From positions 128,001 through 192,000 of the forward strand of contig CAWABA010000011.1 of NCBI GenBank assembly GCA_963780185.1: a stretch of 64,000 nt of DNA, read 5' to 3'. Shown here one piece after another: positions 11,587 through 64,000 of this stretch. The stretch's first letter is position 1. The number at the start of each line of letters is the position of its first letter. The position numbers and the translations under genes were made by a program. The stretch is from Candidatus Bathyarchaeota archaeon (GTDB taxonomy: Archaea; Thermoproteota; Bathyarchaeia; Bathyarchaeales; Bathycorpusculaceae). The notes beneath the pieces are model-generated. The model saw nothing but the letters and a program-made list of their open reading frames with translations. It was not told where the DNA came from and made no database searches.

Positions 11587-11730
11587 ACGGCGCCAAACGA
11601 TCTTTCTTTCCTTCGCAAAATCTTAATTTTACAACTATTTCTATTCGGCACCACGTTGAAAAAGCATTGTTTCATGTTGAAAAATAGCGTCGTTCTTCTA
11701 TGTTGAACTATGCTGTTTCATGTTTGGAGC

Positions 11731-11890: not shown

Positions 11891-11896
11891 TGGATT

Positions 11897-14832: not shown

Positions 14833-14837
14833 GCGAC

Positions 14838-16173: not shown

Positions 16174-16190
16174 TTAAAGGTGAAATTTGA

Positions 16191-16831: not shown

Positions 16832-16896
16832 CCTTAAGCGACTAAGTATTTTTAAGCAGTAAGCAACAATAAACATAGAGGACTTAGTGACTACTA

Positions 16897-17463: not shown

Positions 17464-17473
17464 GGCATAGCGG

Positions 17474-31783: not shown

Positions 31784-31784
31784 C

Positions 31785-32831: not shown

Positions 32832-32878
32832 TTAACTAAGATTTATATGGGCACCTTCACTAGATGACATGAAGCAAT

Positions 32879-33622: not shown

Positions 33623-33698
33623 GTTTCGTTGTTGTCTTTTTTTGCGTCAAGGTATATTACTGCATGTTGGTAGCTCTAAGTTATTGGCGACATGCTTA

Positions 33699-35375: not shown

Positions 35376-35496
35376 GCCTTTCCCATGGCGTTACCCCGTT
35401 CTCAGGTAGATAAGTCGTTGACGCAACATGCAAATCGGCTTCGCAGCGACACACAGATAAATTCATGCGCATAATCAATATACCGAAGAGGTTGAG

Positions 35497-36730
35497 GTGG
35501 GGAACTTGGAGGCTTCTAGAGATTTCGTTTACCAAAAATTCTGCGAGTACTACCGAGACCCCTCAAACGTGATTCCTGCCCCGATTTTTCCCGAGCAAAG
35601 AGAATTCGGCTACCTGATGTTTAAGGAGCGGTTCATGGTTAGGCACAAACGGTTTAACGGCATAAACAGCTTAAGGTCCGCTCTAAACCAGACTGTTCCG
35701 TCAGACGTTTACCATTCTTGCGCTTACTACGAAAACCCAGATTTTGACATGGATAAAAAAGGCTGGTTAGGCGCTGACTTGGTTTTCGACATCGACGCCG
35801 ACCACATTCCGAGCGCCTGCAACAAAATCCACGACGAATTCGTCTGCGCAAAATGCGGCTTCAGCGGCAGAGGCATAACCCCCGAGGTTTGCCCAGCTTG
35901 CGAAGGAACAAAATTTGCCACCAAAACTTGGCCTTGCGAACTCTGCATACAATCCGCCAGAGAAGAGGCCACCAAACTGATTGATATGCTAAGCAATGAT
36001 TTTGGTTTTTCCTTGGATGAATTGCATGTGTTTTTTTCTGGGCACAGAGGATACCATGTGCATGTTGAAGATGAAGCCGTCCGCTCACTCGATTCTATGG
36101 CGCGGAAAGAAATCGTCGATTACGTAATAGGCTTGGGCTTAGGCGTGCTAGAGAAAGATTTCAAAAACAAGAAGGGAAAGCAAAGCCCAAAAAAATTCAG
36201 CCTTCACAATTTCGGCTGGAACAAACGGCTAAAAGTGGGAATGCAAAACTTTCATTCAGCACGCATCTAAAGAAGACCTAAAAAACATCGGAATAAACAA
36301 CACTGCCCTTTTAAAAAACAGGGAAGCAATCATCACCCGCGCCATTAACGAAGGCCGATGGGAAAGCATCCCGGGAGTAAGCGTTCAAACATGGCTCAAA
36401 TTTGCCGAATACGCGAGAGATTTACAGTCGGCAAAGATCGATACCGTTGTTACCACAGATATTCACCGTTTAATCAGAATGAATGGCACCTTGCATGGGA
36501 AAACTGGGTTGAAAAAGGTGGAGTTTCCAGCGAAAGACCTGCAGGATTTTGACCCTTTTTCAGGAGCGGTAGCTTTTAAAAAGGGGGCGGTAAAAGTGTT
36601 GGTCTCTGATGCGCCAGAGTTCAAGATGGGCGGGGAAACGTTTGGTCCATATCGGGATGAGACTAAAGAGTTGCCTACTGCAGCGGCGGTTATGTTGATC
36701 TGCAAGGGACGGGCTAAGGTGGCTGACTAA
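35497..36730 (+). CDS. priS: DNA primase small subunit (frameshift ~36250)
   Basis: REFG, LVFDID, SGHRGYH; after the shift IDTVVTTDIHRLIRMNGTLHGKTG. Confidence 0.93.
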
Positions 36731-37341
36731 TGTATAACGAACTTTACATGGCATGGCGAAAAGAACTGGACGAGGCTTCACTCGCGGGCTTGCCGCGTGA
36801 CTTCTACGTCAAAATAGCCGATTACCTAAAACGCATAAGAGAAGAAAATAGGCTGCCTGACAAGAAATCCGTTAAAGTAAGCTTGCTTGAACATGAAGCC
36901 AACAACGTGACGCTTATGCTTGAGGAGCTGCTTTGGGCAAGATACAAAAAACTGCTCAAAACAATAAGCCAAAACCAAACATTGCCGTCTGAACTGCTAA
37001 CGGTTGAAGAAGCCAAAATATGCGAGAGCTTCGTAGCTTTCTCGGGTGCATATCAAAAGTTTACGAGAGACCTTTTGCAGGGCGAAATCACACCCATCAG
37101 CCAAGCCGCTAGTCAAACAATCACTCAAGCTCAAAGTGTTCCCCACGTTGAGGCTAAAGCAGAAGCTGCAGTGAGCCATACACGGGTGACTTTAAGGTTT
37201 ACAAAGAGTATCCCGGCGATTATGGGTGCAGACATGAAGTCTTACGGTCCATTTCTGGTTGAGGATGTTGCTTCCCTGCCTGCTGAGAACGCGAAGGTTT
37301 TAGTTAAACAGGGTTTAGCGGTGCTGGTTGAAGTTTCTTAG
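36730..37341 (+). CDS. gins15: GINS complex subunit Gins15
   Basis: LPRDFY, GADMKSYGPF...DVASLPAENA..LV; follows priS. Confidence 0.88.
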   Translation: MYNELYMAWRKELDEASLAGLPRDFYVKIADYLKRIREENRLPDKKSVKVSLLEHEANNVTLMLEELLWARYKKLLKTISQNQTLPSELLTVEEAKICESFVAFSGAYQKFTRDLLQGEITPISQAASQTITQAQSVPHVEAKAEAAVSHTRVTLRFTKSIPAIMGADMKSYGPFLVEDVASLPAENAKVLVKQGLAVLVEVS

Positions 37342-38369
37342 AGGCGTCGGATTTTCCCATTTTTATTTTTCGCCACAATCCTTGGCTCGCGAAAATGATG
37401 AGCGGGTAAGATACAATCCAAATTATCGAGTACAGCGGACCATAGTAGAAGTGGAACATTTGCACTTGGTTTGATTCTGCCCCGTACTGCATGCCGATGT
37501 TGAAGATGGTAACTATGCTGAAGCACGTTTATGAAGTAAGTGACGACGACGCCGACCGCGAAGTACCCTGCTTTGGCTTTCCAGCTAATATGCATTTGCT
37601 GAAGAAACACCAAAACAACAGCCGTGAAAATCAGGAAGCTTTCAATGCCTGCGCAGGGCCACGCAATAGAGAATTTAGTGGTTCCCAAGGGTCCCGTAGC
37701 CTGCAAGGTCGGCATCCCATTAACCATCGTCATAGAAGTGACGCATCCAAGCCAATTCAAGATTTTAGCGGCAAGCGTCGCTGTAGTCGGAACCAAAATT
37801 TGAAACGGAGTAAATTCCCCGTAGGGAAAAACGTTATCGATAGTGTACAGGACCCCGACTAAAGCGACGAACAAGCCCGGCAAAGCAAGACGCTTAATGC
37901 CGCTTTCGCCGAAGCAGAAAAACGCGACGAGACAGAAGAGAACTGAGAAAACCAAGTACTCAACGGAAAGCGGCATCGAATTGTAGAAGTAAACTCCTGC
38001 TCTCGTTGACCAGTTCGTTATGGCTCCATTTAGCCCTAAATAATACTCTGAAACCACGTAGATTGTGGGAAGTAGCAGGGCGACGGCGAAGACTGCGAGT
38101 TTGAGGGGATTCTGCCTGTTTATTTTCGGTTTGAAGACGTCCCAGCTCAGGATCAATTCGAGAAGAATCAGCCAGACAAAAAACAGCTGGAAGGTTCTGC
38201 CCTTCCACATAAGCGAAAAAGACCCTTGTGCACTGACCTGAAGGTATGGGTCAGCGGGGTTCAGCACGAAAAGCAGAGCCAGAGGCGCCGCAAAGGCAAG
38301 CAGCGGCAACAGTTTAGCGATGACGTCAAGGTCCACGTACCGCTTAGTCCCTGGGTTATTGTCAGTCAT
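37304..38369 (-). CDS. Exosortase/archaeosortase family transpeptidase (frameshift ~37520)
   Basis: WKGRTF, catalytic WPCAG; removing one base restores INVLRIV (Arg) and continues to MFH (His) in ORF 37304-37492. Confidence 0.85.
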
Positions 38370-38560
38370 GAAGGTTCATTATCCTTGATTTGGCACCATT
38401 AAACTACCTTTTCTCAATCTAAAAAAGCATACGTCCCCCTGCAGTAAGAGGCAGGCTTTTTGAAGAGAGCAGAATCCTCGTGGGAGGCTCTTGGGAAGGG
38501 CTCAGGCGCTTCTGTTATGGTCTCTCCCTGCCCAAAGGTTCTTGGATGTGTAGCCGCGGG

Positions 38561-38617
38561 ATGCTCATAGTCATCGGCGTAGTCCTCGCAATGCTTGTCA
38601 CAAGAAAACACCCATAA
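38561..38617 (+). pseudogene. Remnant C-terminal membrane anchor of a surface protein
   Basis: Translates MLIVIGVVLAMLVTRKHP*, followed by a T-rich terminator-like tract (38641-38657). Confidence 0.4.
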
Positions 38618-39160
38618 ACCAAGACAAACAAAACAAAATCCCTTTTTCCCTTTTTTTAGTCACACAGAAACAAACGGAGGAAAAGAAAAAATGGTGGCTG
38701 AGAAGGCTCTGGTTAAATTCAAAATAGCTGCAATTGAAGAGTTTCCATTTTTCTTTTTTCTCCTAAAAGAAAAGAACTTTTCTTCCTTAATTTGCCAGAG
38801 CCTCAGCAAACCCCTCTTCTTCGAATCCATGGTTTAGGCAAATCCTAAACTGCTTGCTGGGAGACCTCAGAAGCGCCCGTAACCGCCCATAACCGACAAT
38901 GCCATCAACATGGCGTCAACATGGCAAGTCGCAATCCGCCCATGCACACGAACAACCATCAAACAGCCCCGTGTCCTAAACCAAAAAAGCAACCCAAAAC
39001 ACAACCTGGCACCCGCGAAAGTCTCAACTTTCCACAGGACAAAAGTCGCAACAAAAAAATAGACAGAAGAAACAAACCCTTTCTCGAAAAAACCCATGGT
39101 TTTCAGGTAAAAGGTGAAAAAGTATAAGAATGTGTATGTTCCTTCTATGCAAAGCTGGTA

Positions 39161-39445
39161 GTGAATACCGTGAACGTTCCTAAAGAGGTCAAAACTTACT
39201 GTCCAAAATGTAAAGCTCATCAAATTCACAGCGTAACGCTTTACAAGCCTGGAAAGCGAAGAGCCTTAGCTAAAGGCGAACGCCACCATGAACGAGAAAA
39301 ACAGGGTTATGGTGGACAAAAATATCCTTTGCAAAGAGAATTCGCTAAAACCACAAAAAAACAAACAATGCGCCTCAAATGCAAAGTCTGTAACTACATG
39401 AGGCACAAAGACGGTATCCGTCTAAGAAAACTGAACATACAATAG
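39161..39445 (+). CDS. rpl44e: 50S ribosomal protein L44e
   Basis: TYCPKC, GYGGQK, KTTKK, CKVC. Confidence 0.96.
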   Translation: MNTVNVPKEVKTYCPKCKAHQIHSVTLYKPGKRRALAKGERHHEREKQGYGGQKYPLQREFAKTTKKQTMRLKCKVCNYMRHKDGIRLRKLNIQ

Positions 39446-39465
39446 TTAATGGAGAGAAAAAAGTT

Positions 39466-39663
39466 ATGTCTGAATGGAGTAAACTTATCCCGAAACCGCG
39501 AAGCGTCTTCCTCAGAGTTAAATGCTCAAAATGCGGCAACGAACAATTAGTCTTCAGCAACGCAGTTAACAAAATAACCTGCAACGTATGCGGAGAAACA
39601 CTTGCCGAGCCCACTGGCGGAAGAGCAAAGATTAATGGTGACGTGCAAGCCGTTCTCGAGTAA
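39466..39663 (+). CDS. rps27e: 30S ribosomal protein S27e
   Basis: FLRVKCSKCGNEQ...CNVCG...PTGG. Confidence 0.96.
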   Translation: MSEWSKLIPKPRSVFLRVKCSKCGNEQLVFSNAVNKITCNVCGETLAEPTGGRAKINGDVQAVLE

Positions 39664-39678
39664 GGGATGACGAAATGA

Positions 39679-39889
39679 ATGGCTGAGCGTAAGCCCCAGT
39701 GGCCAAAAGCCGGCGACCTGGTTATCGCGACAGTTCAAACCGTCACGGATTATGGCGCTTACGCCGAACTTTATGAATACAATCAACGCAGCTTGCTTCA
39801 CGTCTCAAAAATCTCTTTCCTGCAGGCAAAACGTTGTGGCATGCATCGCAAAAGCAGGCGGGCAAGGCATTTTTAGAAGGGAAAAATAA
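39679..39889 (+). pseudogene. eif2a: Translation initiation factor aIF2-alpha, internally deleted remnant
   Basis: S1 N-terminus (WPKAGDLVIATV...YGAY..L.EY) for ~46 codons, joined out of frame to C-terminal QNVVACIAKAGGQGIFRREK*; canonical position between rps27e and nop10. Confidence 0.8.
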
Positions 39890-40057
39890 TTGGTTTGGCA
39901 ACTTCGAAAATGCGTAGACTGCAGCAAGTACACTCTAAAAAAAGACGTTTGTCCATACTGCGGCGGACCCGTTAGGATTCCGCATCCAGCAAAGTTTTCC
40001 CCAGACGATAAATACCTAAAGTACCGAATGGCAATGAAAAGGAGTAAAGAAGCATGA
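39890..40057 (+). CDS. nop10: H/ACA RNP protein Nop10 (not in the ORF track)
   Basis: TTG start; MVWQLRKCVDCSKYTLKKDVCPYCGGPVRIPHPAKFSPDDKYLKYR. Confidence 0.93.
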   Translation: MVWQLRKCVDCSKYTLKKDVCPYCGGPVRIPHPAKFSPDDKYLKYRMAMKRSKEA

Positions 40058-40824
40058 AAGAAACATACCTCAAACAGTTCGCTGAAATCCAGCCTAACAA
40101 CCCGATTCTCATCGAGGGTCTCCCTGGCTTGGGGCTTGTAGGCAAAATTGCTCTTCGCTACATGGTTAAACAGTTGAAACCCCAAAAAGTAGCCTACCTC
40201 TACTCACCCCACTTCCCCTACTTCGTCCTAGTTAACAAAAAAGGAAACGTTCGCCTCCTACGAGGAGTATTCTACTATCACAAAAACCCAAACGGAAACG
40301 ACTTAATCCTGTTCACCGGCGACAGCCAATCACAAACAATCGAAGGACAATACGAAATCGCCGACCAAATTCTCGCCTTCTCAGAAAAACACAACGTAAA
40401 AACAATCGCGACCATCGGCGGCTACCGAATGGAGCCAACAGAAAAACCCAAAGTCTTTATCGCAGCAACCTCTCAAGAAATCCTAGACAAAGCCCTTAAC
40501 GCAGGCGCAATACTTAGCACCGCGGGAAGCCCCATCGTGGGAACAGCGGGATTAATACTTGGCCTTGCAAAATTCAAAAAAATCGACGCACTCTGCTTAC
40601 TTGGCGAAACACGCGGCTACCTGCCTGACCCACTTTCGGCAAAAAGCGTGCTTGAAGTCTTAAAATCCACGTTCAACTTCGACTTGGACCTTAAGGGATT
40701 GGACGATGAAATTGCCCGGGCGGAAACAATGGTGGCTCGTCTCCAGCAGATCGAAGAGAAACGTGCGCTTGAAGCTGAACAAACACGAAAAGAAGACGAC
40801 AAAAAAACCACATATATTTCTTAA
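40054..40824 (+). CDS. Proteasome assembly chaperone PAC2 family
   Basis: LIEGLPGLGLVG, GDSQ, TIGGY, LLGET.GY.PDP. Confidence 0.92.
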   Translation: MKETYLKQFAEIQPNNPILIEGLPGLGLVGKIALRYMVKQLKPQKVAYLYSPHFPYFVLVNKKGNVRLLRGVFYYHKNPNGNDLILFTGDSQSQTIEGQYEIADQILAFSEKHNVKTIATIGGYRMEPTEKPKVFIAATSQEILDKALNAGAILSTAGSPIVGTAGLILGLAKFKKIDALCLLGETRGYLPDPLSAKSVLEVLKSTFNFDLDLKGLDDEIARAETMVARLQQIEEKRALEAEQTRKEDDKKTTYIS

Positions 40825-41909
40825 TCCAAACTTTTCTTTATTATATCCACGATTTTCTGGGCGGCTGCCCCGTTACCGAAAGGCGAAGTGTACGGCAATT
40901 CAACTTCATTCCTGACTGATTGATTCAAGGCAGCCAAGATTGTTTTGCTGTCGGTTCCGACTACCCTAGCGAACCCAGATTCCACCGCTTCAGGCCTCTC
41001 CGTGGATAAACGCATCACCAGAACTTTTTTCCTTATCTCTGGAGCAGTTGCCTCTTCCTGAACCCCGCCTGAATCAGTGATTATCAATCGGCAATTCTTC
41101 ATTAAAACCAAAAAGTCCAGGTACCCCAAAGGCGGAAGAATCAGCATGTTGCTCGACGCTTCCAACTTCGTCAGAATCCTGTTTTCCTTGAGCCGTTTTC
41201 TTGTCCGCGGATGCATCGGATAAACTATCGGAATCGGCGATTTCGAGAAAACTTCCACGAAGGATTCAAGAACTGACAAGTCGTCAACGTTCTCCGCCCT
41301 GTGCGCTGTGGCTAAAGCGAAACTTTCAAAAGGAATCTTCGACATTACCATCGATTTTTTCTGGGCAATAGACAGATGCTCAGTCACCGCGTCGATGACA
41401 GTGTTTCCAGTCACGTAGACTTTGCCCCAAACGTTCTCTTTCACCAGATTCGCGTTCGCTCCTTTAGTCGGCGCAAACAAAAATTCCGACATGTGATCAA
41501 CTAAACGTCGGTTATGCTCCTCAGGCATACGCAAATCGAAGCTTCTCAACCCAGCTTCTACATGCCCGATGGGAATTCCCCTCTTATCAGCCGCCAAAGC
41601 CGACGCCAAAGCGCCGTTTGTGTCCCCCTCAACCAAAACAATTGAAGGCTCAACCTGCCCCAGCAAACGATCCATATTAACCATAATTTGTCCTGTTTGC
41701 GTCGCAGCCGAATGCGCCTTAATTTTGAATGAAAAATCGGGAGGTGGCAGTTCAAGGTCTTCTATGAACTGCTGCACCATGCAGTAGTCGTAGTGTTGTC
41801 CGCATTGGACAAAAAGACAGGGAATTTCAGCATTTTTTAGGGCTCTGATTATGGGCGCCATCTTGATTATTTCAGGTCTTGTTCCCGCAACAACCAAAAC
41901 TGGCTTCAA
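40821..41909 (-). CDS. wecB: UDP-GlcNAc 2-epimerase (non-hydrolysing)
   Basis: GTRPEIIK, HVEAGLRS, PEEHNR, TDSGGVQEE. Confidence 0.95.
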   Translation of the reverse strand: MKPVLVVAGTRPEIIKMAPIIRALKNAEIPCLFVQCGQHYDYCMVQQFIEDLELPPPDFSFKIKAHSAATQTGQIMVNMDRLLGQVEPSIVLVEGDTNGALASALAADKRGIPIGHVEAGLRSFDLRMPEEHNRRLVDHMSEFLFAPTKGANANLVKENVWGKVYVTGNTVIDAVTEHLSIAQKKSMVMSKIPFESFALATAHRAENVDDLSVLESFVEVFSKSPIPIVYPMHPRTRKRLKENRILTKLEASSNMLILPPLGYLDFLVLMKNCRLIITDSGGVQEEATAPEIRKKVLVMRLSTERPEAVESGFARVVGTDSKTILAALNQSVRNEVELPYTSPFGNGAAAQKIVDIIKKSLD

Positions 41910-41924
41910 CGCTCTGCAGCCTGC

Positions 41925-43961
41925 CTATGTTTTCTTTAGGCATCCTTCCCTTGGCTCGTAGATTGTTCCTTCACGGAGCAGCTGGCTTATCATCCGTTCA
42001 ACTTCGCCCCTTGGAATCTTGTTTTTCGTTTCCAACTCGTTGACAAGAGCCTCTTTCTCAACTATGCCAGTCGCCTTCTCCATGGTCATCAGCGTCGACA
42101 GCACAATGGAGAGCCTGTCGCGGATGCTTTTGGGTCTGCCAGTCATTATCAAGTCAATATCCATCTTGTATGAGGATAGGTCGATTCCGACTTCTTCCAG
42201 AGACTTCTTCATTATGGTAATTGCCGCGCCAGCATCTTCCGCTGTTACTTCCTTACGCAACGCCACCCGAGCTCGCGCTTCCGAGAGCCTAACCAGCGAC
42301 TCAAGCTGCCTTGCAGTTATAGCTACAGGTGAGCCTTCTGTTTCGCTTGCTGAACGCATGGCTAAATAAAAGTCGCTAAGCTGCTTTAACGCCTCTTCGG
42401 AAAGGACGGGTTTAATCCCTTTCGCGTAGCTGACGTATTTCCGCAGCAACTCCGCGTCAACCTGCGCCTCAACAGGGCTCACTCCCCTGCGGTGAATCTC
42501 CAAAATATGCTTCGACATTCTGCCGTCGGATTCTTTGTTTGGGACGTCTCGAAGCACGAAAATTAAGTCGAAACGGGAAAGGATGGTTACTGGCAAAGGA
42601 ACGTTCTCAGCTACGGTGCGGTTAGGTTCATACCTGCCCAGCGACGGGTTAGCCGCCGCCAACACCGCAGTCCGAGCGTTCAATGTGGCGACGATGCCTC
42701 CTTTTGCGACTGAAACCGTATGCTGCTCCATAGCTTCGTGTATAGCGACACGGTCTTCTGGACGCATTTTGTCCATTTCGTCGATGCAGGCTATCCCTTT
42801 GTCGGCTAGCACCAAAGCGCCAGCTTCAAGACTCATGCTTCCTCCTTTCTCCCTTACCACGGCGGCGGTTAAGCCTGCGGCGGTTGTTCCTCTGCCTGAA
42901 GTGTACAGGCCACGGGGAGCTATTCTTGCCACGTACTGGAGAAGCTGCGATTTGGCGGTTCCAGGGTCACCGATCAGTAGGATGTTGGGTTCTCCCCTGA
43001 TGCTTACGTCGGGTAGGGTTTTTGAGACTCCGCCGAATAGCAGGTACATTATTGCTTCTTTGATGTGTTCGTAGCCAAAGATCGACGGCGCTATGGAGTC
43101 CCTGATTTTGCGGTGCACCCACGGGTCCTTGGATAAGGCGAGGATTTTTTCTTCTTCTTCAGGGGTGGGCGGAGAAGTCTCAGGTTCTTTGCCGAGCAAT
43201 TCCACGGAGTTAGCGTCAAGTTGAAGGATAAAAGTTCGAAGTTTCCCCATGCCCATGAGCGAAGGCGCAAAAGCATGCACGATGCCGACTATGGAAACGT
43301 GGTCTCCTGGTCGGGCAACGTCAACGATGTCGTCGCCTACAGTTTTGACCGCTAACGTGCGCGGCAACTGCCCAGGCGGCAGGTCTTCAGGTTTTTCCTG
43401 CAGCCGCAGGTCTTGTGAGTCTATGAATGTGGATTCTTCTTGGACGAATTCGAAGGGTCCGTCTCTTCCGCAGTCAGGCGCAACGCATGCGGTTGGTGCT
43501 TTAAGAAACTGTCCGGTTTGCTCAACCATGTTCATTGTTCCGCAGCGTTTGCATTTGAATGCTCCTTGCAGAACCATGGGTCTAACAGGCGTGGCTCTAA
43601 CTACGATGCCTTCGACCATCACGAGTTTGGTCATCTGTTTTGACCCGAGTTTTCTGAGCTGTTCCTTGCCGAGAAGCTGCACGATTCTTATGATGATTTT
43701 CTCCATTTTTTCAGCGTACTCAGCGTCTTCAATGCGAAGCTGCTCATACGCGCCTTTTCCAGCATGCTGCAGATACTCTTCAGGTCTGTTAAGCACCTGC
43801 TCCGCAAGCGCCTGGTCGAAGCCGTAGAGCTCTTCAAAATCAATTATGATCGAGTTTTTTCCAGTGATGGCTAGCTGTGCGATTCTTTGACGGTACTTTT
43901 CCCTCTTGAAAAACTCCTGGAAACGCTGCTGCGGATCAACAGTCAACTGCTCGTTAGCCAT
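41925..43961 (-). CDS. mcm: Replicative helicase MCM
   Basis: GDPGTAKS, IDEMDKM, SRFD; no intein. Confidence 0.98.
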   Translation of the reverse strand: MANEQLTVDPQQRFQEFFKREKYRQRIAQLAITGKNSIIIDFEELYGFDQALAEQVLNRPEEYLQHAGKGAYEQLRIEDAEYAEKMEKIIIRIVQLLGKEQLRKLGSKQMTKLVMVEGIVVRATPVRPMVLQGAFKCKRCGTMNMVEQTGQFLKAPTACVAPDCGRDGPFEFVQEESTFIDSQDLRLQEKPEDLPPGQLPRTLAVKTVGDDIVDVARPGDHVSIVGIVHAFAPSLMGMGKLRTFILQLDANSVELLGKEPETSPPTPEEEEKILALSKDPWVHRKIRDSIAPSIFGYEHIKEAIMYLLFGGVSKTLPDVSIRGEPNILLIGDPGTAKSQLLQYVARIAPRGLYTSGRGTTAAGLTAAVVREKGGSMSLEAGALVLADKGIACIDEMDKMRPEDRVAIHEAMEQHTVSVAKGGIVATLNARTAVLAAANPSLGRYEPNRTVAENVPLPVTILSRFDLIFVLRDVPNKESDGRMSKHILEIHRRGVSPVEAQVDAELLRKYVSYAKGIKPVLSEEALKQLSDFYLAMRSASETEGSPVAITARQLESLVRLSEARARVALRKEVTAEDAGAAITIMKKSLEEVGIDLSSYKMDIDLIMTGRPKSIRDRLSIVLSTLMTMEKATGIVEKEALVNELETKNKIPRGEVERMISQLLREGTIYEPREGCLKKT

Positions 43962-43963
43962 CT

Positions 43964-44515
43964 CTACTTTTCACCTTCAACATCCAGAATCTTGGCTTTC
44001 CACTCAGAAATAATTTTGACAAGCTGTTCGTAGAGGATTTTTTCTTCATTTGACAACTTTTTAATTACCTGTTCTCCTTGCCCAGGTGCGCCAGACAGAG
44101 CTACGATCTTTTTCAGCCGGGAATTCACCACATCTTTTGCCAGATGCTGCGCTTTTTGGTACTCACTTATTTTTTCGGGTTGTGTAGCTTCCTGCTTCAA
44201 AATGACGAGGTATCGTCTGAGTTTGGGGTAGAAATCGTCTGGCAAGTCGCTGATTTGCCCTGGAATCTGCACGCCTTCTCTCCACTGCACTTTAAAGAGT
44301 TTAGTTGTATCCAGTAGGTCGTCTTCGCGGAAATGAACCATTCCTGCGGCAGCTATCTCTTTGGCGACCCAAAAGTAAACTTCATACTCGTTTCCTTCAT
44401 CAAAGGGGCCAACAGTTAAGCCGGCAAGCTTCATTTCAGGGCAGTTTCTATTTGCAACTATTCTGACCAGTGAGTTCTCGTAGCAGAAATCCAACGTGTA
44501 AATTTTAGCAGCCAA
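43964..44515 (-). CDS. gins23: GINS complex subunit Gins23
   Basis: Directly upstream of mcm; LPDDFY...RLKKI. Confidence 0.8.
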   Translation of the reverse strand: MAAKIYTLDFCYENSLVRIVANRNCPEMKLAGLTVGPFDEGNEYEVYFWVAKEIAAAGMVHFREDDLLDTTKLFKVQWREGVQIPGQISDLPDDFYPKLRRYLVILKQEATQPEKISEYQKAQHLAKDVVNSRLKKIVALSGAPGQGEQVIKKLSNEEKILYEQLVKIISEWKAKILDVEGEK

Positions 44516-53406: not shown

Positions 53407-53484
53407 TGGTGCTCCGGCCGGGATTTGGACCCGGGTCGCCGACTCGAAAGGCCGGCATACTTGACCGGACTATACTACCGGAGC
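53407..53484 (-). tRNA. tRNA-Glu (TTC), CCA encoded, intronless
   Basis: GCTCCGG acceptor stem, CCGGC-CTTTCGA-GTCGG anticodon arm, T-arm CCGGG-TCCAAAT-CCCGG, ACCA end. Confidence 0.93.
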
Positions 53485-54151: not shown

Positions 54152-55438
54152 CTAAAACGAGATTTTGGCGGCGGAGGGGATTTTGCCTAAGATTTTTGCT
54201 GTTGCCTTCTCCACCGCTTCGCGGTCAGATGCATCCGTGTAGACCCGCAGTATGTTCATGAATCCTTGGAGGGTTTCAAAAATCTTTGACATTTCACTTA
54301 GCCTCTGCATGGTTTTTTCGCCCGCTTGGTTTTTGGTGAACACTGGAATTTCCATGGATTCCATAAGCACGGCGTGGTGGTAGGGAACGGACGGCACTGT
54401 GGGCACGTCGATTATGACTGATTCGATGTTGACTCCTGCTTCTTTGGCGATTTCGCTTTGCATTTGGTGGCGGTAGGATTCGCGTCCGAAAATGTTGCTT
54501 ATCATGGTGTCTTTTTCGTAGAAGGTGCGTTCGTAGGCGCATTTTAGCATTTTGCGTCTTTCAAGGTCGCCGATTATGTCTTTAGACGCTTTGCATTTCT
54601 TCAAGGCAGACCAAACCGTGTAGTCGTCCAGCGCCATGTACTCCTCCGGCGTCTTAAACGCCGTCAACCCCAATTCTTCGTTGGCTTTCTCCATAGCCGT
54701 TGCCAGCATAATCTGCGCTGCCCTGCCGACACGGTGGAAATAGATGCTTTTGAACGATTCAATTCGGGCTATCATGAAGGCTTCCAATGCTGAGAGGGCG
54801 CCAAGCTCCACAGCCAGGTTTTCGCCTAAAACGTCAAGTGCGTGGATGAGGCGGTAAACGTCGATGAAGCCGTACTCCGCACCCGTGTGATAAGTGTCCC
54901 GAACAATGAAGTCCTGCTTGTCCACGTCCACGGCGCTGCTGATTATTTGATCAAGAAACGCCCTGCCTGGCTTCTGCATTTTCCCAACTGCTAAGCCAGC
55001 CACCTCTTTGGGATTGTAACCCATCTTTGACAGTTTGTCGCCTACCTCGCTTTTCTCAACAATCCACGAAGTGATGTCCTCATGCGTCTTCTCCAAGTCT
55101 CTTATCAGCAGCTGCTCGAACACATGCGAGAAGGGTCCGTGTCCCGCGTCATGCAGCAACGCGGAGATTCTGCACATATCCACTTCATCTTGGCTGAGGA
55201 GGCTAGATACATTGGGGTTCTCCAAAACTTTGCCTGCCAAATACATAACACCGACGCAGTGCTCAAACCGCGTGTGGTTAGCGCCGGGGTAAACGTACTC
55301 TGACCCTGCCAGCTGTCGCAGGCGCCTGAGCCGCTGCATCGGGTAGGAATCGATGACGCTTTTTTCTTCCTGTGAAATGTACACGTACCCGTGCACGGGA
55401 TCCTTTATTTCGCCCCAATAAGCCTTAGGCACAAGCAA
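54152..55438 (-). CDS. HD-domain dNTP triphosphohydrolase-like (SAMHD1/YdhJ family), resident copy
   Basis: IKDPVHG, RLRRLRQL, YPGANHTRFEH, LLHDAGHGPFSH, DKQDFIVRD. Confidence 0.92.
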   Translation of the reverse strand: MLVPKAYWGEIKDPVHGYVYISQEEKSVIDSYPMQRLRRLRQLAGSEYVYPGANHTRFEHCVGVMYLAGKVLENPNVSSLLSQDEVDMCRISALLHDAGHGPFSHVFEQLLIRDLEKTHEDITSWIVEKSEVGDKLSKMGYNPKEVAGLAVGKMQKPGRAFLDQIISSAVDVDKQDFIVRDTYHTGAEYGFIDVYRLIHALDVLGENLAVELGALSALEAFMIARIESFKSIYFHRVGRAAQIMLATAMEKANEELGLTAFKTPEEYMALDDYTVWSALKKCKASKDIIGDLERRKMLKCAYERTFYEKDTMISNIFGRESYRHQMQSEIAKEAGVNIESVIIDVPTVPSVPYHHAVLMESMEIPVFTKNQAGEKTMQRLSEMSKIFETLQGFMNILRVYTDASDREAVEKATAKILGKIPSAAKISF

Positions 55439-55506
55439 GTCTCCAACTGCAAGTTATATTTATTTATCTCCCTATAATGTTAACGCTGACTAGCTGGGAC
55501 AGAAAA

Positions 55507-56109
55507 ATGAGTGGGAAAGGCGTGTTCATCTGCGTTGAAGGCTTAGACGGAAGCGGAAAAACCACACAGGCACAAATCTTAACGGAGCGGCTCAACCAAA
55601 AATATCGGGCGGTTTACACGGCTGAGCCAAGCCATGGCAAAACAGGAGCCTTCATACGGGAATGCTGCCTCTACGAAAAAAAGCGTTTGCCGACCCCGGC
55701 TGAAGCCTTACTGTTCGCCGCGGATCGAATAGAGCACGTTGAAAACGAGATTAAACCTGCGTTAGCCGAGGGCAAAGTGGTAATTTGCGACCGCTACTTT
55801 TACTCGTCTTATGCTTACCAGGGCAGCGCGGGGCTGAATTTGGGCTGGATCAAAAGAATCAATTCTTACGCGCTTAAACCTGATTACGCGATTTTTATAG
55901 ATGTGCCGCCTGAGCGGGTTCTGGAGCGTTTGCAAAGAAAAAAATCCGTGATGGAAACGTTGGAGATTCAGCAAAAAGTCCGCGAAGTCTACCTGAGCTT
56001 CGTGAAGAAAGGCGAACTTTTCTTGATTGACGGCGACAGAACCAAAGATGAAGTGGCGGATGCGTTGTTTTCTAAAGTTCAAGGCTTCCTTGAAACCCGC
56101 TTGAAATAA
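55507..56109 (+). CDS. tmk: Thymidylate kinase
   Basis: EGLDGSGKTT, LLFAADR, CDRY..SS.AYQ. Confidence 0.96.
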   Translation: MSGKGVFICVEGLDGSGKTTQAQILTERLNQKYRAVYTAEPSHGKTGAFIRECCLYEKKRLPTPAEALLFAADRIEHVENEIKPALAEGKVVICDRYFYSSYAYQGSAGLNLGWIKRINSYALKPDYAIFIDVPPERVLERLQRKKSVMETLEIQQKVREVYLSFVKKGELFLIDGDRTKDEVADALFSKVQGFLETRLK

Positions 56110-58391: not shown

Positions 58392-58904
58392 TTAGTTGCT
58401 TGCCTGCTTCTTGAGGACCTTTCGGTTTGAGGCTCCGTTCAGTTTTTTAAAGATAAACAGCGCTAAATCTTCAGGCGGCACGTAGCGGAGCCCTTTTTTG
58501 TGGTGAACCTGAATTTCAAAAATGCTTCGGTTATACACGGTTCTGACGAGGTAATAATCAAATTTTAGCGGCTTCTTTTTTTCTCCCTCGCCTTTGTAGT
58601 AGCGGATAACGCAGAAGAAATCCATGTTTTCCAAAGACTGAGTCGCAAGCAGATCCATCGCTTTCTTGACTTCTTCTACGTCAATGTAGTTGAAGCAGTC
58701 GGCGTCGGCTAAACCGAACTCAAAAATAATCCTGCAACCTGGAATAGTGGGGTGCCCAACTTCTTCAAAACTGAATTCTTTCTTGTTTACTTCGTAGAGC
58801 GTCTGAATTAGCTTTTCTTGAAGCTGTCGACTCGTGAGGGTTGAAGTGAAGCTCTGCACAAATTGGAGGTTTGGGGGAAAATTGTCAAATACGCCCAGCG
58901 TCAA
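58392..58904 (-). CDS. Hypothetical protein
   Basis: 170-aa ORF co-oriented with the UPF0148 gene. Confidence 0.7.
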   Translation of the reverse strand: MTLGVFDNFPPNLQFVQSFTSTLTSRQLQEKLIQTLYEVNKKEFSFEEVGHPTIPGCRIIFEFGLADADCFNYIDVEEVKKAMDLLATQSLENMDFFCVIRYYKGEGEKKKPLKFDYYLVRTVYNRSIFEIQVHHKKGLRYVPPEDLALFIFKKLNGASNRKVLKKQASN

Positions 58905-58910
58905 ATATTC

Positions 58911-59303
58911 CTACTTTACTTTTTTCATTTTCCCGATTTTGTCAAGGCTGTCAAGCAACTGGGATAAAGCGGTGGTTAGTTTTTGGAGTTCGTCGATGTC
59001 TTGGGTTTTTTCGATTTTTCCCTGCAAATCCTTGACTTTGGCAAGCAAGGTAGATTCAAGCTTGTCGTAGGCGGTGCCAGTGGCGGGAGAGGAGGGCGCG
59101 GCTGGTGGTTCTTCGCCTTCTTTTACGATGATGACTTTTTTCTCGTCTTTTGCGCACCAAAGTGTGCCATCTTGTAGCCTGAAAAGCGGGGACGAGCAAA
59201 CGGGACATGACAAGTCGGTTAAAGTGGCGCCTTTTGTTAGCAGGTCCGCCATGCGTTTGATAGGCGTGGTGTTTTCTTTCTTTTCTTGCAATATGAACCC
59301 CAA
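58911..59303 (-). CDS. UPF0148 / SSSCA1-like zinc-ribbon protein
   Basis: MADLLTKGATL...CPVCSSPLF...WC; divergent from UPF0147. Confidence 0.88.
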   Translation of the reverse strand: MGFILQEKKENTTPIKRMADLLTKGATLTDLSCPVCSSPLFRLQDGTLWCAKDEKKVIIVKEGEEPPAAPSSPATGTAYDKLESTLLAKVKDLQGKIEKTQDIDELQKLTTALSQLLDSLDKIGKMKKVK

Positions 59304-59366
59304 AGTAAATACGTATCAATACTTATATAACTTGATTTACTGGGAGAAATCAGTGGGGAGTTCATT

Positions 59367-59645
59367 ATGGTTCGCAAAAAGAAAGCTGAGGAATATGAAG
59401 GCAAAATTCAACAGGCGCTAGCGGTGCTTGCAGAGGTTTCAGAAGACAGCACCACACCACGCAATATTAGACGCTCAGCAAAAGACGCCATGAACGCCCT
59501 GCAAAGCGGCGAATACACGGTGGCTGTGCGCGCTTCAAACGCCGTTTCGATGTTAGACGAGATTTTGCAAGACCCCAACATGCCGCCCTACACGCGGGTA
59601 AAGCTCTGGAACGTCATGAGCTTCATAGAAGCCATAAAAGATTAG
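59367..59645 (+). CDS. UPF0147 family protein
   Basis: DSTTPRNIRR, LDEILQDPNMPPYTR. Confidence 0.93.
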   Translation: MVRKKKAEEYEGKIQQALAVLAEVSEDSTTPRNIRRSAKDAMNALQSGEYTVAVRASNAVSMLDEILQDPNMPPYTRVKLWNVMSFIEAIKD

Positions 59646-59900
59646 TTTAGAGCAAATAAGACTACTTTCTTTTCCTGACGAATTTCGCTCCCGTTTATTT
59701 CAGTGACATCTTCAAAGCCTACTTCGAGTTGTTTGCAACCGTCATCTAATTTTTCAGCAGCAATGTCTCGATATGTTTTGACGAATCGAATTTAATGGGC
59801 ATAAGTCAATTTTCGGTTTTCTGGCGGTTATAAAGTGCTTATTCACCAGTGAGAAGTCTTATTAGGGGTTAGCAAGCAAAAGTAGGGATAAGGTGCACCT

Positions 59901-61727
59901 TTGCCAGAATTAGTCTTTAGCGAATACATTAAGGACCCTATTTATGGTTCCATCGGGATTACAGCAAAGGAAAAAGAGGTAATAGAAACAAGAATCTTTC
60001 AGCGACTAAAAAATATAAAACAGCTTGGAACAGCAAACTTCGTTTATCCAGGAGCAAACCATTCCCGTTTCGAACACTCAATCGGAACTATGCATGCTAC
60101 CTCATTAATACTGGATAGACTTAACTTTGGCCAAAACCATAAACAGTCAATTCGTCTTGCTGCCCTTCTTCATGATGTTGGTCATGGGCCATTTTCGCAC
60201 ACTTTTGAAGAGTTGTTAGTGAGGAACCCTGCATTCAGGCCGATAATTCAGGGTGTAACATTCGAAGATCACGAACAATTTACCAACTATCTAATCACTG
60301 AAGACGCCGAGCTAAAACAGGCACTTGATTACCACAGGAACGATATTTGCAACTTTCTATTAGGAAATAGAGTTCTCGGCGATGTGCCGCCTGAGGTAAT
60401 AACAGGAGACTTAGGTTCTGATAGGCTAGATTATTTAATCCGGGATACATATTACACCGGTCTCGGTCATAGACCTGATATTGATTCCTTAATTTCAAAT
60501 ATGGTGCTATCTAAAAGAAAATGTGATTCGCCTAGACTTACTATAACTAAGGATGGTATTCTTGCAGCTGAATTTTTGATTACCACGCGTTACTACCATT
60601 ATTCCATGATTGCTCAGCACCAAAAAACACGAGCGGTTGAATTACTTTTCATTCAACTGATGGAGGAAATTCTTAGAAAGGAGGAAGATCCCAAAAAATT
60701 TGTATTCGACGCGTATACCTCATTTGACGACAGTATTATTCTAGGGAGAATTTTTAATTTAACGGGAAAACTTCATGATCTTTTTTATTCAGGGAAGGGG
60801 TTGTTTGAGATCTATAACATTCCTTTCAGCGAAATTAGAAGCGGTCTTGCCAAGTATTGTTTCTACCGAATGTTCGACGACAGTGAGGGGCTCCTACAAT
60901 TTAACAAAAAAGTTGGGGAAGCGATAGGTGAGCTCACAAAAATTGACAAAATAAGCGTTGATGTTCATTTATTCAAACATACTGTCCCGGAAATTATATT
61001 GTGTAGCGAGCGATATGAGACACCCAAGGAGTGGGTAAGTCCATTTGCGATCGATCACTCAAACATTCTAAAATTAATACCAAATGAGCAGCTTCTCAAA
61101 AGCAGTGTGCGAGTTTTTATTGAGGACAAACAGAACTGCGATATTGATGCGATAAAAAAGCTAATAGATCAAAATCGAGCGAATTTATTGTCAACAGGTT
61201 TCTTGGCGCCTTTTTCAAAGGAGCGTATAATGGAAGAATTTCAACCAATAGACTATTTTTACACTTTCATCTGTGCGCTAAGAGACTTCTACTCTGAAAA
61301 ACCTTGGAAATCGGAAGCAACTAAACAGGAGGAGGTTTTTAGAGGTATCGCAAGGATGTATGATTTAACTAAAGTTTGTAGTGATGAACTCAGAATTAAA
61401 ATGCTAAAATATAACACATTCTATTCCAGCGAGGAAAAAAGCCTCACCTATTCAATAAACTGCTTCACTATACTTAATGCGTTTCATTCGCTTGACTTCT
61501 TGCACCTTGAATATATTCCTGCCAAGGCCGAAGGGAGCAAGCCATACCGTAAAGTATATTTGATTAAGCCAACTGGCGAGAAAGAAATCAGAACAAAGCT
61601 TTATGACGATGTACCTAAATTCAATGAAACGAGGAATAAATTCTTAGATGTCTTTAGATCCCTTAATTGGGACGATTACTTTGCAGAGCTCTTCCCCTTT
61701 AAGTCAAATGAGCAAAAGGAATGGTGA
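59901..61727 (+). CDS. SAMHD1-like HD dNTP triphosphohydrolase with extra C-terminal wHTH-like domain
   Basis: IKDPIYG, RLKNIKQLG, YPGANHSRFEHSIG, LLHDVGHGPFSH, DRLDYLIRD; 180 aa longer than the paralog at 54152. Confidence 0.88.
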   Translation: MPELVFSEYIKDPIYGSIGITAKEKEVIETRIFQRLKNIKQLGTANFVYPGANHSRFEHSIGTMHATSLILDRLNFGQNHKQSIRLAALLHDVGHGPFSHTFEELLVRNPAFRPIIQGVTFEDHEQFTNYLITEDAELKQALDYHRNDICNFLLGNRVLGDVPPEVITGDLGSDRLDYLIRDTYYTGLGHRPDIDSLISNMVLSKRKCDSPRLTITKDGILAAEFLITTRYYHYSMIAQHQKTRAVELLFIQLMEEILRKEEDPKKFVFDAYTSFDDSIILGRIFNLTGKLHDLFYSGKGLFEIYNIPFSEIRSGLAKYCFYRMFDDSEGLLQFNKKVGEAIGELTKIDKISVDVHLFKHTVPEIILCSERYETPKEWVSPFAIDHSNILKLIPNEQLLKSSVRVFIEDKQNCDIDAIKKLIDQNRANLLSTGFLAPFSKERIMEEFQPIDYFYTFICALRDFYSEKPWKSEATKQEEVFRGIARMYDLTKVCSDELRIKMLKYNTFYSSEEKSLTYSINCFTILNAFHSLDFLHLEYIPAKAEGSKPYRKVYLIKPTGEKEIRTKLYDDVPKFNETRNKFLDVFRSLNWDDYFAELFPFKSNEQKEW

Positions 61728-61867
61728 CATCAATCATTGCTGATGTCGGCTCTTTGGATTTAATCCACGTTATGCTTTCATTCCCCATTTTGGGGTCGCA
61801 ATTGATTATTAGCAGCTCTGTTAATATATATTTTACTGTTAAACGAAGAAATGAAGAAAGATAACTT

Positions 61868-62581
61868 ATGCCTTACGAGGAAAAAACGGAGCAAGCGTTT
61901 CTAAGTTATTACAACTCTGATAGGTTTCTGACCGAGTTAAGACTTCCAGATAAGCCTGGGCTGCATCATTTTCGATTTCAATACTTTGCTAAGGGGAGAC
62001 TATTCAGACGAGTTTATGACATTGTCGACAGCAAGAGCAAACTAAGAACAATAATTCAAAAAAGATGCCCCAAAAATGTTTACTTTACGCCGGTTAAATG
62101 GCTTGATCCAATTAATGTCAACCGACATAAGGATAAAGAAATTAATGATTATATGCTCTCCAGTCCTCTTTTCTTTGACATAGATAGGCAGTTGCTTAAC
62201 TCTCCAACTATAGACTCAGCGCTAGAAATGACCGAGATACTAATCGGATATATTAAAAAGGAATACAGTCGAGTGCCTGATTGGATAGTTTTTTCTGGAA
62301 AGAATGGGTTCCATGTCTATTATTGGAACTGGGATAACATCGTTAGAGATTATTGCTCGCCAGAGGATAGAATACTTGCTTTTAAAAAAGCTCGGTTTAA
62401 AATCCTTTCTGAGCTTAAAAACTTGTCCATTAGGGTCGATGCTTCGGTGACGATGGATCCCTGGAGGGTTTTACGTGTTCCGGGAACGCTCCACGGTGAT
62501 TCAGGCTTGATTGCCAAGGCGTTAACTAGCTTGACTGACTTTTCTTTTGAAAGAACACAACCCACAGTTATGTCAATATAG
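61868..62581 (+). CDS. Stand-alone PriS-like archaeo-eukaryotic primase (AEP) domain protein
   Basis: Motif I LFFDID, motif II SGKNGFHVY, motif III VDASVTMDPWRVLRVPGTLHGDSGL. Confidence 0.85.
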   Translation: MPYEEKTEQAFLSYYNSDRFLTELRLPDKPGLHHFRFQYFAKGRLFRRVYDIVDSKSKLRTIIQKRCPKNVYFTPVKWLDPINVNRHKDKEINDYMLSSPLFFDIDRQLLNSPTIDSALEMTEILIGYIKKEYSRVPDWIVFSGKNGFHVYYWNWDNIVRDYCSPEDRILAFKKARFKILSELKNLSIRVDASVTMDPWRVLRVPGTLHGDSGLIAKALTSLTDFSFERTQPTVMSI

Positions 62582-62939
62582 CGCTGAATGCCAACAATAG
62601 TTTAGAGAAAATTGAAGAGTGGGAAAATTTTCGTAAAAAAGGCCTGACGGGAGATTTTGCCACTTTAACTTGATAGAAGCCATAAAAGACTGAGACTAAT
62701 TTCTTCTTCCTGAAATCAAGCGGGGTGTGCTTGTGTGTTGGCATTTTGGAAACGTGATTAGCTCCCGCTTCTTGCGTTGCGAAAGATTTTATCAACAGTA
62801 ATCTGGCTCAGGTATTTTAGCTGAAGATTTGTATTCAATAGTTTTTTAAGGCAACGCAACTATAACTTTCCATTTACCGGAGAGACGGTTGCGTTTCAGG
62901 GAGTTAGCCTCTTGCTGTTTCGCGTGGATGTGACAAATC

Positions 62940-64000
62940 ATGAATAAAAAACTACTGTTAGTTATCTTCGTCGCGTTTTTCCTATGTTCAGTTGTAGTTG
63001 TTCCGCAAGTATCCTACTGCCAAACAGGTTCTGGCACGTTAACTGTAACACTTAACTCACCTGCAGACCAAACGACGTCGACGACCCTAAGCAACGTGTT
63101 CACTTATACACCAGTCATTTCTGGTAGCAGCGACTACTTTGCAGGTGCAACGTTGTACATTAACGGAGCGGCGACCACAGCCACAAACTCCACAGCAATA
63201 ACTAACGCAGCCGGTAACACCATCAGCTACGTCTTTTCCAACAGCGGAACCTACACCTGGAATGTACAAGTAACCAACAGCACCGGGTCAACTTCGGCTG
63301 GTAATGATTTTACGTTAACTGTTACTGTTCCAAGCCCAACACCTACTCCGACAACGGCGCCTACGGCAACATCAGCGCCTACAGCAACTCCTACAGCGGC
63401 ACCCACACAGATACACACAGCCTCGCCAACACTAACAGCAACACCAACACCGACTCCAACACCAACTGTAAGCAAAAATCAGGGCGGTCTCAACTTCTTC
63501 CTCATCATTGGAATTGTAGCAGGTGCAGCGGTAGCTGTCGGGGCAGTATTAGCATTTCTGTTCATGAAGAAAAGAGTCACTGAAAAGAGCCTGAGAAGAT
63601 TTTCATCTGGTGATTTCCAAGGTTGGGTGATTAACAAATTCAGTGGTAAACCTGGGGATTCTTCTTGGGGATTTGACGGATTCACCGCTGGCGGTCAACC
63701 TTTATTGATCAGACAAACTGATAACGTCAGCTTGGCCGAAGTTGAGGATTTTGTTAATGTGCTCATAAAAGGAAGGGTGCAAAGGGGCACAATCGTGGCC
63801 TTCAGCTATGATGACAATGCTGGTGAGGGGAGATTGTTAGCCGGAGATCACTCTATTGAGCTTGAAATGTTAAGTGTCTATCAGCTGCTGGATAAGCGCT
63901 TCTCCGGCAAGATCGAAGACATCGCTAATGCGCAGGCTAACTTTGAATCTCCGCCTCTTCCGATGGAAAACCAAGGGCCTGGGCCTTTTGGAGGACTGCC
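62940..64000 (+). CDS. Membrane-anchored protein: signal peptide, Ig-like domain, Pro/Thr linker, TM, cytoplasmic Mrr-like domain (runs off window, not in ORF track)
   Basis: ATG 62940 MNKKLLLVIFVAFFLCSVVVV...YTWNVQVTN...TPTPTPTP...FFLIIGIVAGAAVAVGAVLAFLFMKKR...FQGWVINKFSG...GFDG...GTIVAFSY. Confidence 0.8.
   Translation, partial: MNKKLLLVIFVAFFLCSVVVVPQVSYCQTGSGTLTVTLNSPADQTTSTTLSNVFTYTPVISGSSDYFAGATLYINGAATTATNSTAITNAAGNTISYVFSNSGTYTWNVQVTNSTGSTSAGNDFTLTVTVPSPTPTPTTAPTATSAPTATPTAAPTQIHTASPTLTATPTPTPTPTVSKNQGGLNFFLIIGIVAGAAVAVGAVLAFLFMKKRVTEKSLRRFSSGDFQGWVINKFSGKPGDSSWGFDGFTAGGQPLLIRQTDNVSLAEVEDFVNVLIKGRVQRGTIVAFSYDDNAGEGRLLAGDHSIELEMLSVYQLLDKRFSGKIEDIANAQANFESPPLPMENQGPGPFGGL

Follow-up and report, generated by a model that had tools for sequence, protein, structure and literature searches.

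In Thaumarchaeota, 14 of 68 integrative elements are located in the 3'-distal part of protein-coding genes; according to the sections of that survey drawn on here, the stop codon is supplied by the element, empty sites serve as proof of integration, and tandem arrays occur (Krupovic et al. 2019, PMC6563490). A review of archaeal tyrosine recombinases lists, in the portion considered here, a few protein-gene targets, none of which was tested for recombination (PMC8371274). Here, we describe a further locus of this kind, which lies in a stretch of 64,000 nucleotides (nt) of Candidatus Bathyarchaeota archaeon (contig CAWABA010000011.1, positions 128,001 to 192,000), in the following referred to as the window. 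The interval 59642-62689 at the end of the gene for the UPF0147 protein is very probably the decayed remnant of a site-specific integrative element, which would belong to a family common in Bathyarchaeia whose tyrosine integrase inserts into the last UPF0147 codons. The two cargo genes of the element encode a predicted HD phosphohydrolase and a predicted primase.

As far as the Thaumarchaeota elements are covered in the sections of PMC6563490 mentioned above, the element shares with them the tyrosine integrase (a remnant in the window), the short attachment (att) repeats, the insertion into the 3' end of a protein gene, the new stop codon and the validation by empty sites. Tandem re-use of the site and the lack of virion and conjugation genes are also common to both, and some of the Thaumarchaeota elements carry archaeo-eukaryotic primases (AEPs). 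Unlike these elements, the one described here resides in Bathyarchaeia and targets UPF0147, and a single family with conserved arms on both sides of the att core hits one target in many species; furthermore, the copies are mostly decayed, and recognised defence genes are found in several of them. The kind of element is thus known from Thaumarchaeota. In searches of open-access text, judged in part by titles and abstracts, nothing was found on UPF0147 as a target, on the family with its defined arms or on the pair of HD phosphohydrolase and primase genes. A paper on Bathyarchaeia viruses mentions, in the part at hand, only virus integrases (PMC10848311). The mobile elements of the abundant, uncultured Bathyarchaeia have hardly been charted. 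The locus provides a clean example of integration into a protein gene, in which both arms of the attachment site are defined by cross-species comparison and empty, occupied, tandem and decayed states are visible.

Direct repeats and foreign DNA at the end of UPF0147

A preliminary description of this DNA, made from the sequence alone, had proposed an att-like direct repeat that rebuilds the C-terminus and the terminator of the host gene. The repeat is exact and above chance: a 17-mer at 59625-59641, inside the last seven UPF0147 codons, recurs at 62673-62689; these are its only two matches in the 64 kb, even if up to two mismatches are tolerated, and two matches were obtained in none of 100 dinucleotide shuffles. 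The left copy ends with GAT TAG and the right copy with GAC TGA, and IEAIKD* would be encoded by both. In a repeat-family search (family D2), the repeat extends to 59621-59641 and 62669-62689, with 20 of 21 nt being identical. Each core is followed by a second, T-rich tract (59659-59678 and 62693-62713; 19 of 21 positions aligned, one gap). Taken alone, this tract is weak (blastn-short E 2.5, 4.2 kb searched), but as a positional match it is not due to chance: within the 60 nt that follow each core, its score was reached in 2 of 5000 shuffles and in none of 429 real 60-nt windows.

The DNA between the cores (3,048 bp) has a guanine-cytosine (GC) content of 0.384, compared to 0.473 in the left and 0.468 in the right flank. 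None of 566 equal-sized windows elsewhere in the 64 kb has a GC content as low as this, and the low GC content is uniform over the entire interval, which is GC-poor foreign DNA. As the preliminary description had assumed, the integration target is a protein-coding gene, namely UPF0147 (PF03685), and not a tRNA gene; the single tRNA gene of the window (53407-53484) has no part in the insertion. The features of the locus are listed in Table 1.

Table 1. Features at the UPF0147 locus, with positions given for the window.
Feature	Position	Strand	Evidence
UPF0147 gene (92 amino acids), integration target, intact after integration	59367..59645	+	PF03685, E 1.1e-30
attL core, with the exact 17-mer 59625-59641 inside	59621..59641	.	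20/21 nt common with attR
P' arm (element arm adjoining attL) with 3' remnant of the tyrosine integrase	59642..59765	-	tblastn, DNA profile
Cargo gene 1, predicted 608-amino acid HD phosphohydrolase of the SAMHD1 family	59901..61727	+	PF01966, PDB profile, model
Cargo gene 2, predicted 237-amino acid stand-alone PriS-like archaeo-eukaryotic primase	61868..62581	+	PF01896, E 1.1e-6, model
P arm (element arm adjoining attR): A-rich tract, then a conserved block of about 25 nt	62634..62668	.	alignment, nhmmer profile
attR core, second copy of the UPF0147 3' end	62669..62689	.	repeat match
Putative short trace of a previous P' arm (integrase-stop region; first 14 nt missing)	62690..62713	-	arm profile, positional test

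Integrase remnant and arms of the attachment sites

The locus was compared with 80 UPF0147 loci of other Bathyarchaeia species (designated by L-numbers), with each species represented by a single genome and flanks of up to 10 kb included on either side. The UPF0147 relatives mostly consist of 92 amino acids (aa), are 84-96% identical and derive from Bathyarchaeia or Bathyarchaeota wherever the source gives a name. Two loci, L018 and L055, show the full Bathyarchaeia gene order around UPF0147 in records titled Limnocylindrales bacterium and Methanocella species; these contigs are probably mis-binned. The gene order upstream is kept in nearly all 80 loci and comprises an HD phosphohydrolase, a thymidylate kinase, an ABC permease and ATPase, a hypothetical protein, a p27-like zinc-ribbon protein and UPF0147. 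Downstream of UPF0147, the loci vary. The ancestral neighbour on this side is a convergent gene whose product, of about 165 aa, combines a PadR domain with a TRASH zinc domain, and the three genes that follow UPF0147 in the window are present in none of the 80 loci.

Many loci resemble the left copy of the window for more than 100 nt past the UPF0147 stop codon. Read on the minus strand, this left arm contains the 3' end of a convergent gene, which ends with ...FRKRK* in intact copies and spans 376 codons in L035 and 436 codons in L037 from stop to stop; it is shorter in other loci. The products of L035 and L037 are tyrosine recombinases (PF00589, E 6.5e-20 and 3e-19, respectively), with visible R, HxxR and Y motifs. 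When these intact integrases were used as tblastn queries, they matched the window at 59666-59761 (L035; 59% identity over 32 residues, E 3e-7) and up to 59773 (L037; 50% identity, E 1e-5). The DNA profile of the P' arm, whose training set does not include the window, matches 59643-59749 with an E value of 1.3e-21. The remnant comprises about 35-40 codons: the stop codon of the intact frame lies at 59662-59664, a 1-nt insertion read directly from the sequence causes a frameshift about 10 codons before this stop, and in the alignment the integrase homology stops at around 59765, 135 nt before the HD gene. Thus, the element of the window appears to have lost its integrase except for a frameshifted 3' remnant, and the earlier suggestion of an element that persists as a remnant after integrase loss agrees with the tblastn, arm-profile and alignment data. 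The T-rich tracts, however, do not represent a rebuilt terminator as originally proposed, since on the left, the tract forms the end of the integrase coding sequence in intact copies, and on the right, it matches the same arm profile.

The integrase resembles the type II pNOB8-like integrases and XerA, as these are described in the portion of PMC8371274 referred to above, in that the gene would remain whole after integration and adjoin one att site, and in that its catalytic domain is nearest to archaeal XerA (NF040815, E 1.8e-27; PDB 4a8e, E 5.5e-13). Unlike these enzymes, it falls below the family cut-off of XerA (96.6 versus 220 bits), has a zinc ribbon in its N-terminal region and targets a protein gene instead of a tRNA gene or dif site. 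The SSV-type integrases (type I, suicidal) are likewise archaeal tyrosine recombinases that leave an integrase fragment adjoining an att site. In this type, however, the att site lies inside the integrase open reading frame (ORF) and the gene is split between both ends. A split integrase of this type was rejected for the present locus: the core lies outside of the ORF, the L035 and L037 genes are whole in the integrated state, and no integrase match was found near attR. The present integrase would therefore be of the classical type, which is whole after integration.

On the other side of the element, the final 21 nt of UPF0147 recur (at most three mismatches) 0.7-7.5 kb downstream in eight loci. 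In all eight, as in the window, an A-rich tract and a conserved block come before this copy. The right arm of the window aligns with the P arms of these eight other elements over about 35 nt beyond the core; the block is unlike the UPF0147 coding sequence and is common to the elements whatever their cargo. An nhmmer profile trained on nine attR sites, those of the window and the eight loci, finds full-length copies in L036, L010, L008, L040 and L045 (E 1e-11 to 3e-4), which are independent of the training set, whereas the score of the window itself (62634-62690, 59.8 bits) is circular, since the window is among the nine training sequences. The P arm shows no conserved RNA fold (-0.3 kcal/mol, 0 compensatory pairs), and Rfam gave no match in 58500-64000 at E values of up to 1. 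An RNA element was ruled out on these grounds, and since neither a fold nor a family was found, the P arm is read as the putative protein-binding part of attP. A diverged coding copy of UPF0147 was also considered and rejected, as the similarity upstream of the core is, by eye, at chance level.

Empty and occupied sites and the history of the locus

The preliminary description had suggested comparing the UPF0147 locus across relatives for empty sites and for other cargo accompanied by an integrase, and both were found. In 27 of the 80 loci the site is empty, that is, the convergent PadR-TRASH gene ends no more than 100 nt from the UPF0147 stop codon and no arm is present. Another 24 loci are occupied, with a P' arm that starts from the first bases after the UPF0147 stop codon; 13 of them trained the P' arm profile and 11 are independent. 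The PadR-TRASH neighbour is displaced or absent without a recognisable arm in a further 27 loci, and two loci were too short for classification. A full P arm with core is present 0.7-8.6 kb downstream of UPF0147 in 13 loci (eight of which trained the attR profile, while five are independent); ten of these far-side sites belong to occupied loci and the other three to L040, L060 and L067. The same layout in 13 of 80 related loci argues for the repeats of the window being the att sites of an integrative element. An intact integrase is encoded in 2 of the 24 occupied loci, L035 and L037, together with other cargo at the same site. In seven loci (L002, L004, L010, L011, L014, L045 and L054), attR is located 32-82 nt before the displaced PadR-TRASH gene, and the insertion is therefore bounded exactly by the two sites. 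The smallest bounded element is found at 10276-10963 of L034, where 687 nt between the att sites contain a 68-codon integrase remnant and the far-side arm, but no cargo; it is an almost fully deleted copy.

The occupancy of the site was mapped onto a host tree of the flanking ABC ATPase and permease genes, which consists of 64 rows including the window; 17 loci that did not have both ABC genes in one alignment covering more than 85% were left out. Occupied and empty states need at least 11 changes on this tree, at least seven of which are forced by well-supported branches; occupancy was hence gained or lost several times. The sister of the window is L001, which is altered at the site and was missed by the profile. 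L006, whose site is empty, is placed inside the three-member clade of the window (SH-aLRT 90). Taken together, the UPF0147 end appears to be used repeatedly by related archaea as an insertion site for different cargo.

The bases that distinguish attL from attR indicate where the exchange may take place. Both sites are present in 13 relatives. At the wobble position of the Ile codon, attL of these loci mostly shows the host allele, and attR that of the element; at the last codon's wobble base and at the stop codon, the difference runs in the opposite direction. What attL and attR have in common is, in 9 of the 13 relatives, a 14-nt block terminating one base ahead of the last sense base, and in L034 a further host-specific base narrows the shared block. 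The exact 14-nt block is found at the end of UPF0147 in 49 of the 80 loci, including 17 of the 24 that are occupied. Provided that no mutation has occurred since integration, the exchange would fall within this block, so that the host protein would stay as it was, with the element contributing no more than the last wobble base, the stop codon and what lies downstream. Of the rebuilt C-terminus proposed in the preliminary description, only these bases would thus be contributed by the element, so that the proposal would be true in a narrow sense only.

Based on these comparisons, the following course of events can be proposed. In the free form, attP would consist of the P arm, a mimic of about 20 nt of the UPF0147 3' end and the P' arm, which would overlap the 3' end of the element's own convergent integrase gene. 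Recombination with the gene end, attB, would place the integrase side directly after UPF0147 to give attL, and would leave the P arm and the core at the far end as attR. In the window, the integrase would have been lost later except for the frameshifted codons, while both att sites stayed intact. The element would then not be self-mobile and could at most be moved by a related integrase in trans.

The site may also have been used before, since a 24-nt sequence that looks like an older P' arm follows attR. This sequence (62690-62713) matches positions 15-37 of the P' arm profile (E 0.0035, 758 nt searched); a similar short form of P' is present in L051, and a second arm after attR in L067. It is best read as a possible trace of an earlier occupant of the same site, which is consistent with the tandem re-use known from Thaumarchaeota, as reported in the sections of PMC6563490 used here, and with the absence of the PadR-TRASH gene. 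No integrase was detected to the right of attR by tblastn (E limit 10), nothing was found past 62713, and a further profile match to the right of attR is non-significant (E 0.75). In L067, a second integrase-side arm follows the far-side att copy (10276-15450; E 9.7e-6 in a small search), which appears to be a tandem arrangement of two elements at the UPF0147 site. Another similarity of 15 nt between 59643-59657 and 62598-62612 (14/15) was treated as chance (blastn-short E 0.16); it is not detected by the attL profile of the family and is absent from the other elements. The right one of these sequences sits about 60 nt upstream of the right core, and the similarity corresponds to the 14 nt of the arm that are missing from the right copy; it is probably fortuitous, but could trace a rearrangement.

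Several points weigh against the view that the interval is the decayed remnant of one integrative element. No intact integrase is encoded in the 64-kb window, in which tblastn with the L035 and L037 integrases finds no copy besides the remnant. The HD and primase genes occur in none of the other 24 occupied loci, and it is by position alone that the cargo is linked to the integrase family. Furthermore, no empty site of the same species is available, with one genome per species in the comparison, and the nearest relative, L001, is itself altered. Finally, the proposed relic of an earlier occupant comprises 24 nt, and attR is followed by an unrelated gene (62940 onward), which is present in none of the 80 loci, instead of the ancestral PadR-TRASH gene; the right-hand context thus seems to be older island DNA or the product of a rearrangement and not plain host sequence.

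Among the alternatives, a functional non-autonomous satellite fares best. Its att sites would be under selection, and it would be moved routinely by a related integrase encoded elsewhere in the genome. The identity of the cores over 17 nt would fit this idea, as would the close alignment of the P arm with those of other elements, the P' arm that is recognisable for about 100 nt and the frequency of the integrase family in related genomes (24 of 80 loci). However, with an intact integrase in only 2 of the 24 occupied loci, decay seems to be the usual fate of these elements, and no integrase is found in the 64 kb of the genome seen; we therefore regard a satellite as unlikely.

A still smaller probability is assigned to a sequence of two events, in which an older integrase element was followed by an independent cassette of the HD and primase genes that landed in the integrase gene or replaced the integrase together with the original cargo. 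The two genes would then not be cargo of the integrase element. The abrupt end of the integrase homology 135 nt before the HD gene is in line with such a scenario, and the pair seems to recur on many small metagenomic contigs of 3-12 kb while it is missing from all 24 other occupied loci; yet neither repeats nor ends of a second element were detected around 59766-62633, the P arm lies 52 nt past the primase stop codon, as cargo sits in other elements, and the GC content is low throughout the interval. A local duplication, a chance match or a misassembly without any mobile element, for which no support was found apart from the weakness of the second tract when taken alone (blastn-short E 2.5), can practically be dismissed, as it is contradicted by the absence of a second 17-mer match from 100 shuffles, the conservation of both arms across species with different cargo, the empty sites in 27 of 80 loci and the foreign composition of the interval.

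We thus favour the decayed remnant of a single integrative element as an explanation for the interval. The intact integrases of L035 and L037, together with the arms and a crossover interval of at most 14 nt, provide material for a test of an archaeal integrase on a non-tRNA target.

Cargo genes and their genomic surroundings

The first cargo gene encodes an HD protein (PF01966) with a core that resembles deoxynucleoside triphosphate (dNTP) triphosphohydrolases and a family-specific C-terminal extension. A profile search of the PDB retrieved 2hek with an E value of 5.8e-60 and SAMHD1 with about 1e-34. The predicted structure (predicted local distance difference test, pLDDT, 91.8) matches 2hek, EF1143 and SAMHD1 in Foldseek with E values of about 5e-15 over 430-490 columns, and the H...HD...D and DxxDYxxRD residues are invariant in 31 homologues. 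Judged by these residues and the modelled fold, the product is predicted to be a member of the SAMHD1/dGTPase family. A search of a protein atlas with residues 300-608 gave a best score of 0.79, which is under the lead threshold. The host possesses a SAMHD1-like HD phosphohydrolase of its own (HD and HD_assoc_2 domains) at 54152-55438 on the minus strand, adjoining a thymidylate kinase gene at 55477-56109 on the plus strand; the synteny of this pair is conserved across relatives. The cargo HD protein and this paralogue share 31% identity over 269 residues, and at the DNA level only short matches of the HD motif to host paralogues were found.

In the product of the second cargo gene, residues D104, H149 and D191 do not vary among 32 sequences, at least 90% of which also retain D106, so that primase motifs I (DxD), II (sGxGxH) and III (D) are present. 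The top Foldseek match of its model (pLDDT 91) is PriS of S. solfataricus (E 2.3e-13, TMq 0.70), and the protein is predicted to be an AEP of the PriS clade. The host encodes its own PriS at 35497-36270, as part of a replication cluster at 31028-44515 that also contains PCNA, PriL, two GINS-like genes and MCM. Identity between the two primases is restricted to 33% over 40 residues, which suggests that the element carries an extra, very divergent copy beside the host PriS. According to the part of an AEP survey used for comparison (Kazlauskas et al. 2018, PMC5862659), the cargo primase has the fold and the three catalytic motifs of archaeal PriS, and also the His...Arg...His pattern attributed to this group in the paper. 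In contrast to archaeal PriS and the AEPs of mobile elements as presented there, it consists of only 237 aa, lacks PriL-like, PriCT and helicase domains and has an HD phosphohydrolase as its partner. According to a term search, HD domain, SAMHD1 and phosphohydrolase do not occur in the survey.

Both cargo families are rare, with 42 further clusters for the primase and about 30 full-length ones for the HD protein. Neither gene was found in the 80 loci at E values of up to 1e-3, and tblastn gave no match for the primase in plasmid or phage collections, in which the HD gene was not searched. In nine pairs of primase and HD clusters, the longest contigs are of equal size (3,090-12,540 nt), and the cluster members add four further pairs. 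Since the sizes match, the two genes would share the same small contigs elsewhere; this indication is indirect, as it comes from contig sizes and the gene order was not seen. No fusion of HD and primase domains was found among the best 150 of 1,145 primase profile matches, and a Pfam scan of ten longer or differently arranged primase matches detected no HD domain. A distant relative of the primase, P0380 (939 aa), is fused to PAPS-reductase and 4Fe-4S dicluster domains.

The cargo of sister elements includes several recognised defence genes. L037 carries a type I restriction-modification system (13501-18807; HsdM, HsdS and a ResIII helicase), L002 a dCTP deaminase defence gene (7475-8758; PADLOC dCTPase, 4.3e-94) and L004 PDC-S18 (10722-11618; PADLOC, 5.2e-90). 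Large PQQ-like beta-propeller proteins, radical SAM enzymes and transporters are encoded by other sister elements. With recognised defence genes gathering at it, the UPF0147 site lends itself to the search for defence genes of archaea, and the conserved HD-primase pair is a candidate. Antiviral depletion of dNTPs is known from human SAMHD1 and from the dGTPase and dCTP deaminase defence genes of bacteria (Tal et al. 2022, as cited in the part of PMC13276650 at hand). As far as these are characterised there, the cargo HD protein resembles them in its predicted SAMHD1-family fold and catalytic residues, and a dCTP deaminase is found in the sister element of L002. It differs from them in its extra C-terminal region and its conserved primase partner, and it is a predicted enzyme. 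Its match to the PADLOC dGTPase model is weak (4.1e-6) and covers only part of the protein (residues 27-106, about 80 residues), and the housekeeping paralogue of the host matches similarly (4e-5). Because this match is weak and no better than that of the paralogue, a role of the HD-primase pair as a defence module may be pursued as a lead, but is not a finding. It is tempting to speculate that the 3' end of UPF0147 is a class-wide landing pad of Bathyarchaeia, at which one integrase family delivers and exchanges small defence cargo, and that the occupant in the window is an undescribed two-gene antiviral system of a SAMHD1-like dNTPase and a minimal PriS-like primase; we consider this possible, but doubtful. 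If it were true, the primase might sense or mark invading DNA, or it might make a nucleotide product that controls the dNTPase.

The gene to the right of attR (62940-63998, with an ORF that runs beyond the end of the window) encodes a secreted or membrane protein, in which a signal peptide, a Pro/Thr-rich linker and a transmembrane helix can be recognised by eye; Pfam gives a weak PKD match only. As the window has no PadR-TRASH neighbour, the variable island probably extends beyond 64000.

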